In this document: one piece after another, positions 3,230 to 12,087 of the stretch | How positions within the stretch are numbered: position 1 is the stretch's first letter | Layout: every line of letters begins with the position of its first letter | Assembly (NCBI GenBank): GCA_021513715.1 | Contig: CP084167.1 | Coordinates: 1 to 64,000, forward strand | Length of the DNA: 64,000 bases | From: Candidatus Heimdallarchaeum endolithica | GTDB lineage: Archaea > Asgardarchaeota > Heimdallarchaeia > Heimdallarchaeales > Heimdallarchaeaceae | Reading direction: 5' to 3' | The notes under the pieces: generated by a model | The model's input: only the letters and a program-made list of their open reading frames with translations | Told to the model about the DNA's origin: nothing | The model's database searches: none | Program-made: the position numbers and the translations under genes

Positions 3230-3342
3230 AGCTTTATATAGCATATCGTATTCTAATATTTTTTGCCTAATAAAAGAGCTCTCCGCCCATAAAAAAATAG
3301 ACCGTAGCTCTTTGCATACTCTATTACGATCATAAAATGAAA

Positions 3343-3436
3343 GAAAGCTGCAATGAAGCAATAACATAGTGCAATAATACCCCACGTGGCGTGTCACATA
3401 CGTAAGTTGTGAGTCTATGTGAGCTGAGCAGCTTTC
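3343..3436 (+). ncRNA. Putative kink-turn-closed structured RNA or leader of the virion operon
   Basis: GAAAGCTGC/GCAGCTTTC stem, AAT bulge, tandem GA/GA, AGC/GCT; internal stems ACATAG/CTATGT, CACG/CGTG and TCACA/TGTGA; GC-rich island in an intergenic gap. Confidence 0.6.
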
Positions 3437-3516
3437 GAGTGTACATGTTACTTACTAATTCCTGTTTCTAATTTTCAACATACTAGAGGGACTGGGAGCT
3501 CAGGAGCAAAAAGAAA

Positions 3517-5013
3517 ATGAAAACAGAAAAAATGAAAATAAAAAACACATTTGTTGTTCTTGTAGTATTGACACTTTTTGTAACTACAAGTTTTGCTTTT
3601 ATGAATGTTAAAGCTGAGTCATCTGATGATGAGTTAGCTTTTCCTGAAATAACAGTAACTACTACTGCTACAGTCGATGTTAGAACAGATGTTGCTTTAT
3701 CTCTCCAAGCTTTGCAATCGATACCTGTTGTTCCTGAAGGACAGATAGGTATTCATGCTATTAAACCAACAAAAACTGGTTTATCAATAACTTTGACTGG
3801 CCGAATTGGTATGACTTCTGATAGTGAATGTCTTTCTGACGTTGCAATTGGACCTGAGATTGATCATGAGGAGAAAAAAGATAGTTGGCAGTTAGCGCTT
3901 TTTCTTGACAAAGGAACTAATCTTTATGAAAACACTACTGATGTTAGCGACACTTTTGCTATTTCTAATGATTTTAACAGTTTAACATATCAGTATTTAG
4001 CTATTAGTCGTGCTCGTAGTAGAGCTACTTCTAATAGTAGTATTGTTGTTACTTACGCTGATTCTCTTAGTGCTAACATAAGTGACAGTGACGATGTCAC
4101 CAACGTTACTATTTACAACGACTTTTTACCAACTCGTCAATTGCTCTGGTTCAGACTTGACCTAGAAATCAGTAATTCTAGTCGTCCATATATTTTGAAC
4201 ATTGCTGGCGATGAATTTGATGCTGATGCTGTATATGTTTTTAGTATGCCTTCAGAGCAAGATTTTCGTGACACACGTTATTTAGAAGTTAAGTTAGGTA
4301 CTGATTCCTGGGTTAACATCTCTGAATTAAATGCTGCAGAAGACTGGAAAGAAATAGCGACCCATCAAACTGATTATACTGAAAAATGGACTGATAATAC
4401 TGTTAAAGGGGCTGGTTTTGAGACTGTCGATAGTTTTGAAGATAGTCTAAAAGAAGCATGGGTTGCTATAATAAATAACGAAATAGGTGCTCTTGATGGC
4501 AGTAGTTATTCTTCTATCAGTACAGGTCAAATAGTTGATTATCGTATAAGTTCTGCAAGTTTAGATACAATGCTCAACGCACAATTATCTTCTGCAATAT
4601 ATTCTTCAGTCAAAAACGCTGCTGCACAAAGTAGTGATTTAAACACTTATACTCGAGCTGCTAGAGCTAGCACTATACGAAGATTTACAATAACGACTAA
4701 ACTTAGCCCTAAGACAATTGAAGAAAATAACAGAGCTGAAGATGTAACAGAACAAGATAATCTTATTTTAGCTTCAGCAATGAAGGCGAAAGGAAAGGCA
4801 ACTAGTTTCTCAACTAACATTCTTGATAAAATAGTAAGTGCAACAGGTAAAATTTCTAAGCCCTTAGCAGTTTGGTTAGCAAAAGAACGAACAGCATGGA
4901 ACAACCTTGGTGTTAGTGACAACTGGTTACTTATCGGAGCTGTCGCAGGTGTAACAGCTGTAGTAGGATTAACTGTTTTCTTTATTTCCCGAATAGCTCA
5001 TAAGAGGAGATAA
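3517..5013 (+). CDS. Signal-peptide, C-terminally anchored surface protein, paralog A (putative virion envelope protein)
   Basis: N-terminal signal (..MNVKA-E); C-terminal TM WLLIGAVAGVTAVVGLTVFFI plus basic tail; motifs shared with the next gene. Confidence 0.75.
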   Translation: MKTEKMKIKNTFVVLVVLTLFVTTSFAFMNVKAESSDDELAFPEITVTTTATVDVRTDVALSLQALQSIPVVPEGQIGIHAIKPTKTGLSITLTGRIGMTSDSECLSDVAIGPEIDHEEKKDSWQLALFLDKGTNLYENTTDVSDTFAISNDFNSLTYQYLAISRARSRATSNSSIVVTYADSLSANISDSDDVTNVTIYNDFLPTRQLLWFRLDLEISNSSRPYILNIAGDEFDADAVYVFSMPSEQDFRDTRYLEVKLGTDSWVNISELNAAEDWKEIATHQTDYTEKWTDNTVKGAGFETVDSFEDSLKEAWVAIINNEIGALDGSSYSSISTGQIVDYRISSASLDTMLNAQLSSAIYSSVKNAAAQSSDLNTYTRAARASTIRRFTITTKLSPKTIEENNRAEDVTEQDNLILASAMKAKGKATSFSTNILDKIVSATGKISKPLAVWLAKERTAWNNLGVSDNWLLIGAVAGVTAVVGLTVFFISRIAHKRR

Positions 5014-5015
5014 AA

Positions 5016-6590
5016 ATGAATAAAAGTCACTTTTTTACTTTTTTATTTATTTTTTCAATTATTGGTGGTGCTTTTGTTCATATTGACACATATGCTTCAT
5101 CTGAAGATGAATTATTAGCTAAGTTAACGCCTGAAGATATAATACCTGAAGCTTTGGGTATTTTCTCTGCTGATATAGACGTAGAATATAGCAGAACGGG
5201 ACAAACATTGCGTTCTACGTATCATATTGATACAGTGATTCAAGCTCCTGTAATAAAATCGGATGACACAGGTAAAATAGCTCTCAACCCTCGTGATTCA
5301 ACAGAGGCCGACAAAGAAGATTTTGGTATTCCCCAGCTCGCTGGAGACAAAGCTTATCTCGTTAAAAGCACTACAGACACAGAATATGCAAAACTGAACA
5401 TTTTAGACAACTTTGCTGTCGAAAATTATCAATATTTACTTTTAGAGAACGCTATGAGTATAAGCTCTAATGCAATCACTGTCAAAGTTTCTTTTGCCAA
5501 TTCTCTCACAGCAGATATTAGCAATGCTACACAAACAAATAATGTAACCCTGACTAGTACAATCTATGCTATTAGACAAACTCTTTGGTGGAATCTTGCA
5601 GAAGAAACAACTAGTGCTTATCCTTATGTGATTAACATTGAGATAACTCAAGTAGATTTGTATGGTTACTATATTTTCAGATTTGAGAATAATCGTTATG
5701 TCATTGACACACGTTATGATATACTCTATCTTGATACTGATGACACACCTATTACAACTTTATCAGAGAGTATAAATACTGTAGAGCATAACTATGAGAG
5801 ATATGTTAGACCGCATACTGATGATCTTTCTCTAAAAGCTACTGTTCTAGATAATCTCAATGAAACTAAGATGATGTCCGTACAAACTCCGATAGAATCT
5901 ACAAGCGATATGTATGTTCGTGCAGTCGGTTGGACTAGGGCTGATGATTTAGAAGATGATCTTAAAGAAGCTTGGAGGCAACAGCTGAATCTTCCAGAAG
6001 ATGCTCGCATAGTTGGATACAATCTAACTAAGGGCTACATACAATGGATTCTAAATTGGGGACTAGTGAAACTGCTCAAGCGTGAGCTTCAGGAGCAAAT
6101 GGAATTCTCAAGCGACTATGTCACTCTGGTCAACAACGCTCTCAGAAAAATCCTGCCACTTTGTGCAGTTGCTAACGACGAAGACGCTTTTGATGCTGTA
6201 AAATTATTTGTTTCTGGCTATGAAACTCGAGGTTTCTGGGATACTATCAAAAGCACTGTAAAATCTACAACAAGTGCGGTTGCAACGGTAGCAAAGAAAG
6301 TTGTTGATTTACCAGTGAAAACTATTGATGCGCTTGGAAACGCTGCAGCTAAAGTAGTTACACCAGTTGCACAAACGGTGCAAAGCGTTACTCCGCATGT
6401 CACTAATATGATCAAAGATAATGTAGGACACATAACTAATGGTGTAGTTGGTGTAGCTGGTGCCGCTAAAGATCTGGGTAAAGGAATTATGGATAGTCTA
6501 AAAGTACCACTAATGATCGTAGCTGGTGTGGCAGGAGTTGGCATAGTCATTTTCTTGATTATTCGCTTTGGTCCAATGTTGAAAAAATAA
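5016..6590 (+). CDS. Signal-peptide, C-terminally anchored surface protein, paralog B (putative spike/fusion protein)
   Basis: Signal peptide and C-terminal TM; YQYL, RQTLWW, PYVINI, DTRY and EDDLKEAW are shared with paralog A; long amphipathic pre-TM segment. Confidence 0.75.
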   Translation: MNKSHFFTFLFIFSIIGGAFVHIDTYASSEDELLAKLTPEDIIPEALGIFSADIDVEYSRTGQTLRSTYHIDTVIQAPVIKSDDTGKIALNPRDSTEADKEDFGIPQLAGDKAYLVKSTTDTEYAKLNILDNFAVENYQYLLLENAMSISSNAITVKVSFANSLTADISNATQTNNVTLTSTIYAIRQTLWWNLAEETTSAYPYVINIEITQVDLYGYYIFRFENNRYVIDTRYDILYLDTDDTPITTLSESINTVEHNYERYVRPHTDDLSLKATVLDNLNETKMMSVQTPIESTSDMYVRAVGWTRADDLEDDLKEAWRQQLNLPEDARIVGYNLTKGYIQWILNWGLVKLLKRELQEQMEFSSDYVTLVNNALRKILPLCAVANDEDAFDAVKLFVSGYETRGFWDTIKSTVKSTTSAVATVAKKVVDLPVKTIDALGNAAAKVVTPVAQTVQSVTPHVTNMIKDNVGHITNGVVGVAGAAKDLGKGIMDSLKVPLMIVAGVAGVGIVIFLIIRFGPMLKK

Positions 6591-9600: not shown

Positions 9601-12087
9601 TTTGGAAATACAATGTCGTTGATGAATGATCTTGAACTAACAAACAGTTCTATTCATACACACCTTGAGAGTCAGACAAACAACATCACTATCCAAATTG
9701 ATAATACTAATACAAACATTGATACTCAAACAAATAATATCGTTATTGAAATTACGAATACAAACAGTACATTATCTCAGCAGCTGAACACAATCACAAC
9801 TGACATTGCTAATCTTCAAACAAATATTACGCTGCAAATTAATGATATCAGTTCGGAAATCAATAACTTACAAACAAATATTACTATACAAATTAACGAT
9901 CTTAATCAGACTGTTTTAAATGTCCAGACTAATCAGACGTTGCAATATAATGAATTGACTAGTTTAATCAACAACTTTGAAAGTAGTATGGACTCACAGC
10001 TTAACAGTATCAGTGTAAGTATTACGAACCTTCAAACTAACATGACTTTACAGTTCAATGATATAGATACAGCAATCACTAATACTGAAAGTAATATTAT
10101 TTCACAGATTAATAATCTTGAGACTATCATTAACAACTTTGAAACTTCAATGGATTCGCAGCTTAATTATCTATATCTGAATATTACTAACTTACAAAGC
10201 AATGTCACATTACAGTTTAATTCTATTAGTTCGGAAATCAATAACTTACAAACAAATATTACTATACAAATTAACGATCTTAATCAGACTGTTTTAAATG
10301 TCCAGACTAATCAGACGTTGCAATATAATGAATTGACTAGTTTAATCAACAACTTTGAAAGTAGTATGGACTCACAGCTTAACAGTATCAGTGTAAGTAT
10401 TACGAACCTTCAAACTAACATGACTTTACAGTTCAATGATATAGATACAGCAATCACTAATACTGAAAGTAATATTATTTCACAGATTAATAATCTTGAG
10501 ACTATCATTAACAACTTTGAAACTTCAATGGATTCGCAGCTTAATTATCTATATCTGAATATTACTAACTTACAAAGCAATGTCACATTACAGTTTAATT
10601 CTATTAGTTCGGAAATCAATAACTTACAAACTAATATGACTATACAGATAAACGATCTTAATCAGACTGTTATCAATGTTCAAACTAATCAAACGTTGCA
10701 ATATAATGAATTAACTTCGTTAATTAATAACTTCGAGACAAATATGGATTCACAGCTGAACTCTATCAATATCTCTATTACGAACCTTCAAACTAACATG
10801 ACTTTGCAGTTCAATGACATAAGCAACCAAATAACTAATATTAATAGCACTATTACAGAGCAATTAAACGAAATAGAGGTTTTAATCAACAACTTTGAGA
10901 CAAGTATGGATCAACAACTTAATTCTCTGAATGTCTCAATTTTAAACAATAGAGCAAATATAACAATGCAAATAAACGAGCTCGATATTGAGATACAAAA
11001 CGTTCACACAGAAGTGATTGCTCAAGCAAATAACATAAATGCGAATTTAGAGAATGTCAACGCAACAATATATACACAAACTATTGAAATACTTAATTCA
11101 ATTTATAACAATAACGCGACTATTTATAATCAAACAGTTACTTTGTTAAACGCTATAAGTCAAACAAATAGCACACTGTATGAACAATCGATTAGTATTT
11201 TGAATCAAATTGATTTGACTAACGCTACACAAGTCACTTTACTTTTGCAAACTTACGAATACTTACTTGACCAGGAAAACTATTATACAATTTATTTCAT
11301 CTTGACGAATCTTCAGGGTGTTGGATTGAATTTTGAAACAGCTGCAATATATGTAAATAACTCGCTTATCTCTGATTTTAAACAGATTTACTATAAAAAC
11401 AGCTTATTGTTTATCGAAGTTAGAGACTGGTTTAACAACACTTTGTTACTTACTAATATAACTGTAAGCATTAATAATCAAATTATTACTCTCAATTTAC
11501 CTTTAGTCGAACAAACATTTGAGAACGATTATGATGTTCCTGTAGAAGTCACCTTGATAAGTGTTTATAATGAAAATGAAACAGTTGGTTACACTATTTA
11601 CGCTCATTCTTCAATTACTATACTGCTTTTTGCTAATAGTTATCATGTAAAAGTAACACCCCTTGAAGATAGTTACACTAATGCGACACATATTACATAT
11701 TATTATCCTGAAACGAAGAAATTTCAAGATTTAGGCTACGATTCAAATAAGGTTTATAAAATAACCATGAGCACCAAAACAGAAGAACTCTACAGTTCTG
11801 ATGAAATCGATGCTACAGCACAAGCAAGAAACGCAAAAATGATGCTTATTATGAGCGCAATACTGAACGCGCTATTAATCACTTTTATTGGGTTTATCTC
11901 ACGTTACGGTATCGTTAAAACCTGGAATATCATTGCGACACCAATTTATTACTTCTTGAAATTCTTTACTGATTTATTCGAATTACCTGCACCTAAGTTA
12001 TTTATCAAAGATGAGGGGGGCATAGATTTTGTAACGGTGGAACAACAAAGAAAGTTCCATGAAAGAAGAGCAAGAGGTTTGATATAA
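6619..12087 (+). CDS. Giant membrane-anchored adhesin/fibre with CBM-like beta domains and an 18-aa-periodic coiled-coil stalk
   Basis: Signal peptide; GFEKG...YISFDYY...WQK...FYFDNIKI (CBM4/9-like jelly-roll signature); ~550 aa of 18-residue repeats rich in N-x-T; C-terminal TM. Confidence 0.8.
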   Translation: MKRNIILYSLVMMLIISNVINISLKQDDGNTQKETDNINSLYPEKDDEIADTQEESYLQQSDSSALRQSYATTDNSYKVNMATQVDTSTWYQGETIKTEMKFNKQIPDYYTYTSELYHSGSTTPFEDVDIAIISPGASLKDDSSNTYITFSPDSDITIANYIRTTFYSKIYAGGSGALYAQGYARWYYSGSSYYSTSVTSDSYTISTSYLDGSGYLHIYVNIYADDSADKLTFMVGFMNYETGNYETVLQIEKTGCGSSNFHLATAVIDYLYFQREEIIDNVRSTYKYTTQTTKIHKLEIYSIANVESISIYYPKHMIFSSISPTASYSLSSNILTIDNPVELKYSLFFSSNSSNFLALKDVSSEFQNNIGFEKGLFYDWKNAENSPYVFETIEHSSSIVSEGIFSLKLASTDTGSDLIYFYCNNFEPGEYYISFDYYISNLEYGYYNPSELRFSYYSSSSWRKTVLGTSDYYIANRWQKAFIYADIIPDSSNRIFRIYSYGAKGEFYFDNIKIWKVSTDIKTICSNKYEISSTFISWDGYKNPSLSNHKVNFDIYDATTQTLEESYSLATNENGLATWTLNQELEEKEYEIRAYTYSNWFGDRIEAQLGDRWDFEDSDTWVGKSADLFEQKEYYVHAYDDGDAAWHGMRTLADFQIYDSDVFIYRIKGSTSDISFNAFWVYDGSVSYSRTITFSTPGSWEIYTWNWGYDFSVSEIRFESKSSGVAFDIYMDYLKIVDESFFSPFYFTPEIFTSDPVLYESSDYFVLSSTNDDYNYEIFSDNQFIGYYSDLEIIPKNLTAGNHNLTAVLYSDSQNQAYIPSTYEYLYTITESELCTLTFYDQQGRYIDARTFVIFVNSERIYGDSFIWSDVSQTINLEIQDIFGHVIYSNSTEEYERFKDFVLDYYSVKIQNQQELPVWVSISSNGQIFSSWIFSWEVEEFRIYSGSYTFTVYYCSDPTASFTQVTTNGTYVSYAFDVNSDTALIVTGYTIADIFGNTMSLMNDLELTNSSIHTHLESQTNNITIQIDNTNTNIDTQTNNIVIEITNTNSTLSQQLNTITTDIANLQTNITLQINDISSEINNLQTNITIQINDLNQTVLNVQTNQTLQYNELTSLINNFESSMDSQLNSISVSITNLQTNMTLQFNDIDTAITNTESNIISQINNLETIINNFETSMDSQLNYLYLNITNLQSNVTLQFNSISSEINNLQTNITIQINDLNQTVLNVQTNQTLQYNELTSLINNFESSMDSQLNSISVSITNLQTNMTLQFNDIDTAITNTESNIISQINNLETIINNFETSMDSQLNYLYLNITNLQSNVTLQFNSISSEINNLQTNMTIQINDLNQTVINVQTNQTLQYNELTSLINNFETNMDSQLNSINISITNLQTNMTLQFNDISNQITNINSTITEQLNEIEVLINNFETSMDQQLNSLNVSILNNRANITMQINELDIEIQNVHTEVIAQANNINANLENVNATIYTQTIEILNSIYNNNATIYNQTVTLLNAISQTNSTLYEQSISILNQIDLTNATQVTLLLQTYEYLLDQENYYTIYFILTNLQGVGLNFETAAIYVNNSLISDFKQIYYKNSLLFIEVRDWFNNTLLLTNITVSINNQIITLNLPLVEQTFENDYDVPVEVTLISVYNENETVGYTIYAHSSITILLFANSYHVKVTPLEDSYTNATHITYYYPETKKFQDLGYDSNKVYKITMSTKTEELYSSDEIDATAQARNAKMMLIMSAILNALLITFIGFISRYGIVKTWNIIATPIYYFLKFFTDLFELPAPKLFIKDEGGIDFVTVEQQRKFHERRARGLI
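9850..10631 (+). repeat. Exact 378-bp tandem duplication (126 aa = 7 x 18 aa) plus the start of a third, diverging copy
   Basis: 9850-10227 identical to 10228-10605 base by base; identity continues to 10631. Confidence 0.95.

Follow-up and report, generated by a model that had tools for sequence, protein, structure and literature searches.

HeimV1, a provirus of Candidatus Heimdallarchaeum endolithica, carries upstream of its putative virion operon a kink-turn (k-turn) that is real and lies far above chance expectation. Judged by comparison with related viruses, the leader RNA that contains it is likewise real, selected and undescribed, the motif itself being known: k-turns, including those in archaeal leaders, have been reported before (PMC5539422, PMC4247193). 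The original prediction, a stand-alone 94-nt element (3343-3436), was right about the k-turn but wrong about its extent, as the feature reaches well beyond these limits and the k-turn forms the central arm of a leader of ~252 nt. The reading we favour, to which we give about an even chance, is that of an L7Ae-bound architectural arm within a structured leader that acts in cis at the 5' end of the envelope/morphogenesis operon of HeimV1. All positions refer to the forward strand of the window, that is, the whole 64,000-nt stretch of DNA analysed.

Proviral setting and downstream operon

The window is the beginning of a single-contig 3.33-Mb genome that is terminated by a tRNA-Gly(CCC). Positions 1-30395 fit the provirus HeimV1: they are bounded by 66-bp direct repeats (1-66 and 30330-30395) and contain an integrase gene (29372-30277). 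HeimV1 has been described as a 30-kb provirus with circular replication and a defined origin, in a host genome rotated such that the tRNA stands last (PMC8813620). The repeats, the integrase and the agreement with this description place the element inside HeimV1, and the claim that it is virus-encoded holds. An insertion sequence (30400-31413; more than 20 genome copies) is found directly outside the right attachment site. At the left end of HeimV1, positions 184-210 match a distant relative (L171:780-806) over 27 nt at 93%, possibly reflecting a replication or recombination signal. Beside the integrase region, an ASCH-domain gene (28395-28730) possibly encodes a viral RNA-binding protein; near the leader of the relative L010, a KTSC-domain gene is found in its place.

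The leader lies within the 287 nt that separate the end (3229) of a variable gene for a membrane protein from gene 1 (3517-5013, forward strand), which encodes a protein of 498 aa with a signal-like N-terminus, a beta-sandwich domain and a C-terminal hydrophobic helix. Gene 2 (5016-6590) is a paralogue of gene 1. Both belong to an operon of ~12 kb, whose genes follow one another closely between 3517 and about 15400 and whose products are mostly membrane-anchored. These products resemble envelope or surface proteins, and the proposed assignment as virion operon is plausible. A first structure model of the gene-1 protein was poor (pLDDT 46); a second (pLDDT 81) matched only generic carbohydrate-binding-like beta-sandwich structures (Z up to 7.1), which leaves capsid, spike and fusogen as candidate identities. 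We note that the 3' part of gene 2 (6228-6590) encodes an end that is nearly invariant relative to L010 over its last 75 residues (72/74), the remainder being ~50% identical, pointing to an amphipathic and membrane segment with a key function. Two host CRISPR spacers match the operon, one exactly over 34 nt in gene 1 (3794-3827) and one at 85% in the repeat region of an 1822-aa gene (10225-10264), which indicates that the host targets its own provirus.

The k-turn arm

The arm consists of a 5' strand (3343-3369; C-stem, AAU bulge, G1b-A2b, NC stem, a 4-nt loop side and upper stem) and a 3' strand (3415-3436; upper stem, NC stem, G2n-A1n and C-stem). The C-stem (3343-3351/3428-3436) comprises 9 bp and is followed by the bulge AAT (3352-3354), the tandem G-A pairs (GA 3355-3356 with GA 3426-3427), the NC stem (AGC 3357-3359/GCT 3423-3425) and the upper stem (ACATAG 3364-3369/CTATGT 3415-3420). 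The apex in HeimV1 is made of two inner hairpins, with ACGT at 3384 and 3400. Each of these elements lies where it had been predicted, and the ATG at 3517 confirms that the arm ends 80 nt before the first gene of the operon. To call the motif a textbook k-turn is justified, since a canonical stem, a 3-nt bulge, the pairs G1b·A1n and A2b·G2n and an NC stem make up the standard k-turn sequence definition. The minimum free energy (MFE) structure has the claimed shape (-27.6 kcal/mol, z -2.5), the shorter arm of L010 reaches a fold z of -5.2, and the pairing probability of the C-stem in predicted folds is 0.94-1.0 at 37 C. A strict k-turn pattern, requiring at least 9 Watson-Crick C-stem pairs plus 3 NC pairs, was sought in the 3.33-Mb genome in both orientations; of its two occurrences, one falls in the provirus, and 60 Markov copies of the provirus yielded none. 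A relaxed scan yielded a second candidate k-turn register (3328-3334 with 3416-3422), which competes with an 11-bp stem in L010; the same two segments could also pair as a pseudoknot, a C/D-like G·A/U·U helix.

At -1b·-1n the k-turn carries C-G, and at 3b·3n A-U. A Watson-Crick pair at 3b·3n blocks ion-induced folding, and L7Ae folds such turns (PMC4382518, PMC6298567); kinking is therefore predicted only with protein, not in ions alone. The host does provide an L7Ae, as the original prediction had supposed, with the recognition-helix residues N-E-K-R, and no L7Ae-family gene is present in the provirus. A turn of a kind that L7Ae can fold, in a host whose L7Ae retains the recognition residues, makes it likely that the arm is a docking site for host L7Ae. 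The host l7ae gene itself has a possible k-turn-like hairpin over the Shine-Dalgarno (SD) sequence of its 5' UTR (L165; G000:C1 near 1778990-1779030, minus strand), with a 4-nt bulge and A-U at 3b·3n, suggesting that l7ae of Heimdallarchaeum may be autoregulated from its own leader hairpin.

Within the arm, a switch had been proposed in which the upper stem gives way to a mutually exclusive pairing of TCACATA (3394-3400) with TATGTGA (3416-3422). Seven pairs can indeed be drawn in HeimV1 and L018, but the fold has a predicted probability of 0.00 and an energy 6.4 kcal/mol higher than that of the MFE structure. It also leaves both k-turn stems formed, so that L7Ae could not distinguish the two states. 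The apical segment that holds the inner hairpins and the alternative fold (3370-3414) is moreover variable: 32 nt of it are absent from L010/L011, in which a plain 11-bp hairpin replaces both inner hairpins. In favour of a switch in the apex, a distinct competitor, 3383-3387 with 3417-3421, is just 0.9 kcal/mol above the MFE and breaks the NC stem; it exists only in HeimV1 and L018. We regard the TCACATA/TATGTGA switch as extremely improbable.

Conservation among leaders with the k-turn

Leaders of this type (type A) comprise those of HeimV1, L018 and L010/L011, i.e., three distinct sequences, whose folds are all predictions. The gene-1 protein of L018 is 97% identical to that of HeimV1, with differing upstream DNA, and the protein of L010/L011 is 54% identical. 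The HeimV1 and L010 proteins are ~1 change per site apart. Seven leader blocks are identical at 146 of 151 positions between HeimV1 and L010, as opposed to 39 of 91 in the three linkers plus promoter spacer and 54 of 97 at the four-fold sites in gene 1 (p = 4e-22 for blocks against linkers and p = 8e-16 for blocks against four-fold sites, the sites not being independent). The k-turn core is invariant in all three leaders, with 22/22 identical positions in the 3' strand, so the expected conservation in relatives was found. All 18 arm pairs are invariant too, which speaks for strong selection but offers no covariation as proof of the pairing.

Predicted promoter, leader blocks and closing helix P1

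The predicted operon promoter is an archaeal TATA box, TTTATATA (3233-3240), identical in the three viruses and followed by a poorly conserved spacer of fixed length (24 nt). Conservation starts at G3265, 24 nt past the box. In host leaderless genes, starts peak 21-22 nt after TATA boxes of this kind, and in T. kodakarensis transcription starts ~23 bp after TATA (PMC4247193). From this spacing we infer a transcript start at 3262-3265 and thus a structured, non-coding 5' leader of ~252 nt (3265-3516). The genes upstream differ among HeimV1, L018 and L010, and those of L010 are encoded in the reverse orientation, which means that the leader must have a promoter of its own. A sigma-70 promoter/terminator scan was set aside as unfit for archaea.

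Several invariant segments flank the arm. Block a (3276-3288, within the invariant stretch 3265-3289) pairs with block c (3488-3501, assigned from fold probabilities) to form the closing helix P1. Block c abuts the SD sequence AGGAG (3502-3506), which is located 10 nt before the ATG, a spacing within the host range, and is complementary to the 3' end of the host 16S rRNA. Block b (3301-3311) is an invariant island (11/11) between diverged linkers and pairs with 3275-3280 in short nascent transcripts, which is exclusive with P1. The pre-arm segment (3326-3342; 17/17 identical with L010, 16/17 with L018) has no convincing pairing partner. Downstream of the arm, a U-rich stretch (3463-3475), with U4-U5 runs in all three leaders, might act as a leaky terminator. 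Words resembling SAM-I in the 3' linker were dismissed, being unconserved among relatives.

In the predicted folds of all three type-A leaders, P1 has a pairing probability of 0.97-1.0 at 37-60 C and sets the predicted 5' end against the SD, which follows the end of the arm by 65 nt. In folds of truncated transcripts, which describe equilibrium rather than kinetics, the a:b hairpin reaches 0.7-0.99 at most lengths in HeimV1/L018 and 0.03-0.98 in L010, where it is unstable at intermediate lengths; block b is displaced once block c is made. At equilibrium, a:c is favoured over a:b by 4-6 kcal/mol. With P1 formed, the SD is mostly open (0.7-1.7 kcal/mol to open, the first three bases being about half paired), and the cost of freeing the 30S footprint is 8.6-11.5 kcal/mol, compared to host quartiles of 6.3, 8.1 and 10.4; forcing a:b lowers it from 11.5 to 6.2 kcal/mol. 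Since the SD is largely open, any effect on translation is probably one of tuning rather than shut-off, and may be small.

Other leader designs at the same locus

Relatives of gene 1 (13 at 41-97% identity, plus more distant ones) turned up in 8 genomes out of 400 from the phylum, each of them a member of the class, and their upstream regions show three leader designs. Type B, present in at least 11 relatives, is 100-135 nt long and, where upstream DNA was available, starts ~24 nt after a TATA-like box. A covarying helix (121 of 132 standard pairs, with double-sided changes) closes it on the SD, which is itself partly occluded (4.8-9.8 kcal/mol for the eight leaders computed). No consistent k-turn was found in type-B leaders, and a type-B covariance model, built on a rough alignment, did not match the leaders of HeimV1, L018 and L010. 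Examples of type B (L016:9870-10003, L014:1949-2068, L021:4873-5003) share the words UCRARAUC, UGUUCCA and AGGGCYAGA; L009 has a minimal form, and in L190 the leader precedes a 287-aa family member. The model also matched L196 (G075:C226:968-1064; E 2e-7) in a genome without a gene-1 match. Two host tRNA introns (G000:C1:2267632-2267748 and about 1945300-1945420) share an 11-nt complementary word pair, one word of which resembles AGGGCYAGA; with 26 genome copies of the 9-mer, the likeness is probably due to chance.

The third design is found in basal relatives, whose leaders are short. Two of the three (L150 and L171) have a hairpin just before the SD, which in L150 contains the pair AGAGCU/AGCUCU, as in a:b. 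In the gene-1 tree (midpoint root), the type-B relatives group in a single clade; its sister is L010, and HeimV1/L018 fall outside. Type A is therefore either the older state or was exchanged, with the diverged linkers arguing against a recent exchange.

Comparison with known RNA classes

An Infernal-type comparison with Rfam gave no covariance-model match at gathering score (best E 1.5, searched to E = 10), and no likeness to SRP or RNase P RNA was seen. A model of the arm, run under strict filters on the host genome as well as on 83 genomes from the class, found only the element itself, and hence no host origin. The 3' arm occurred in none of the matches listed from a metagenome DNA scan with an unspecific 17-mer, and scans of viral contigs gave no true match to the element. 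CRISPR repeats found in the host scored at background against it, so a CRISPR-repeat mimic (RNA anti-CRISPR) was rejected. Block b as a guide to host 23S rRNA (10-11 nt complement) was rejected too, as 8 of 40 shuffles pair equally and no box D follows.

Archaeal box C/D sRNAs share with the arm a bulged strand at the 5' side, a box D CUGA at the 3' side (perfect at 3424-3427) and a closing stem. However, the box C of the arm (AUGAAGC, invariant) agrees with RUGAUGA at 5/7 positions only; the U·U pair, internal C'/D' boxes and a free guide or target are absent, and no guide of at least 10 nt beside box D is complementary to rRNA or tRNA (5S rRNA left out) above chance. The arm was hence not classified as a box C/D sRNA, nor as a box H/ACA sRNA, given that the consensus fold has no conserved lower stem and Rfam no match.

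The AAU bulge is that of human U4 snRNA. With the U4/protein-dependent class of standard k-turns (PMC4382518), the HeimV1 k-turn also shares the 3-nt length of the bulge, the tandem G·A pairs, C-G at -1b·-1n and a Watson-Crick 3b·3n; in contrast, it resides in a predicted viral mRNA leader, has no spliceosomal context and has an unusually long C-stem of 9 bp. The k-turn in the 5' UTR of archaeal l7ae (PMC5539422, PMC6298567) resembles it in leader position, A-U at 3b·3n and likely L7Ae binding. Yet l7ae leaders are weak hairpins over the SD, whereas the HeimV1 arm is predicted to be stable without protein and is separated from the SD by the 65 nt given above, in a 250-nt multi-arm leader; it should thus work unlike the l7ae leader, and an assignment to the autoregulatory l7ae type was rejected. 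Riboswitches with k-turns (SAM-I, T-box, lysine, glycine, c-di-GMP-II, cobalamin) likewise have a long conserved leader with an architectural k-turn, but the HeimV1 leader has no counterpart in Rfam, its k-turn is predicted not to be of the ion-folding type, and no ligand pocket was identified. The maturation-gene leader of the levivirus MS2 forms its long-range helix at the ribosome-binding site only after a delay, imposed by a transient hairpin (PMC4615214). The predicted HeimV1 leader shares with it the multi-arm architecture, the closing long-range helix and perhaps a transient hairpin holding the 5' partner; MS2, however, pairs its whole 7-nt SD and has no k-turn, while the HeimV1 SD is mostly open, and the comparison concerns the way of working only, not homology.

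Proposed mechanism and alternatives

In the favoured reading, transcription would start near 3265, the arm would fold as a stable hairpin, and the 5' end would pair with the stretch before the SD to form P1. Host L7Ae would bind the k-turn and lock the kink, turning the leader into a compact RNP. The role of this RNP would be architectural, namely to shield the 5' end of the ~12-kb message and to set ribosome access to gene 1. The nascent a:b hairpin may delay P1 and thereby give a short window of ribosome access, and the leader would not repress by covering the SD in the manner of the l7ae leader. A cis-acting leader is supported by conservation that extends from the predicted +1 through the SD, by P1 in all three leaders, and by distant relatives having their own leader closed on the SD, with pre-SD hairpins in two of three basal relatives. 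The near-invariance of unpaired stretches, which exceeds the needs of a scaffold, counts against this reading, as do the missing covariation in three distinct sequences, the mostly open SD, the instability of a:b at intermediate lengths in L010 and the lack of a k-turn in most relatives.

The extreme conservation would also suit an independent sRNA of ~200 nt, either terminated at the U-rich stretch or processed out of the leader, which would bind L7Ae as a decoy or as an orphan C/D-like RNP with Nop5 and fibrillarin. Both proteins are encoded by the host, the polarity is like that of a terminal C/D motif with a perfect box D, and the U4-U5 run is found downstream in all three leaders. This explanation seems unlikely: box C is imperfect, C'/D' boxes are missing, the would-be guide is variable, internally paired and without rRNA or tRNA complement above chance, and conservation extends past the U run to block c and the SD, which pair with the 5' end. 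The invariance of unpaired segments to the same degree as helices could, on the other hand, point to an archaeal-virus riboregulator of a new class. L7Ae would assemble an RNP in which the invariant core senses a ligand, either a metabolite or a viral protein, and P1 gates the virion genes, a:b versus a:c (P1) being the expression platform that silences them in the proviral as opposed to the replicating state. Three conserved, mutually exclusive blocks with an AGCU core, one abutting the SD, the lowered 30S-footprint cost upon forcing a:b and the ASCH-domain protein of HeimV1 agree with such a switch, which we nevertheless consider rather improbable, both as a description of the leader and as a rival to an architectural role, because a:c is clearly favoured, the SD stays mostly accessible in both states, the k-turns of riboswitches as a rule fold in ions while this one should not, and Rfam gives no match.

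Invariance without covariation, which agrees with recognition of DNA by a protein, several short palindromes and circular replication from a defined origin (PMC8813620) would fit a signal at the DNA level, such as operator palindromes or a hairpin in single-stranded DNA that serves as origin or packaging site. We hold this to be quite improbable, as the tandem G·A geometry exists on the forward strand only, relatives differ by 32 nt in the spacing of the arm, and conservation begins at the predicted +1, with RNA-like closure at the same place in each relative group. Repression of the l7ae type, by which L7Ae binding would shut gene-1 translation and tie virion synthesis to free L7Ae, draws on the same 3b·3n pair in the A. 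fulgidus l7ae leader and on the many archaeal mRNAs bound by L7Ae (PMC5539422); it requires a weak hairpin over the SD, whereas the HeimV1 arm is stable unaided and distant, and is thus very unlikely. We give equally little credence to the absence of any function, with the identity arising because co-occurring viruses recently exchanged the region. The leader type does depart from the protein tree (HeimV1/L018 and L010 do not form one clade), and the contigs are from closely numbered samples, but linkers and promoter spacer have diverged as four-fold sites have, which is unexpected after recent block transfer.

Implications

Epstein-Barr virus encodes a C/D-like RNA, and viral k-turn RNAs thus have precedent. 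Regulatory RNAs of archaeal viruses are, to our knowledge, barely described, and within the literature searched, which excludes most subscription journals, we found no description of structured RNAs in Asgard viruses or of k-turn RNAs in archaeal viruses. The virus family considered here has three leader designs at one locus, one of which covaries and has no Rfam entry, and as short RNAs these designs are testable in vitro without host culture. If confirmed, the favoured reading would mean that a virus of Heimdallarchaeia builds an RNP on its own mRNA with host L7Ae, a relative of the eukaryotic 15.5K/Snu13.
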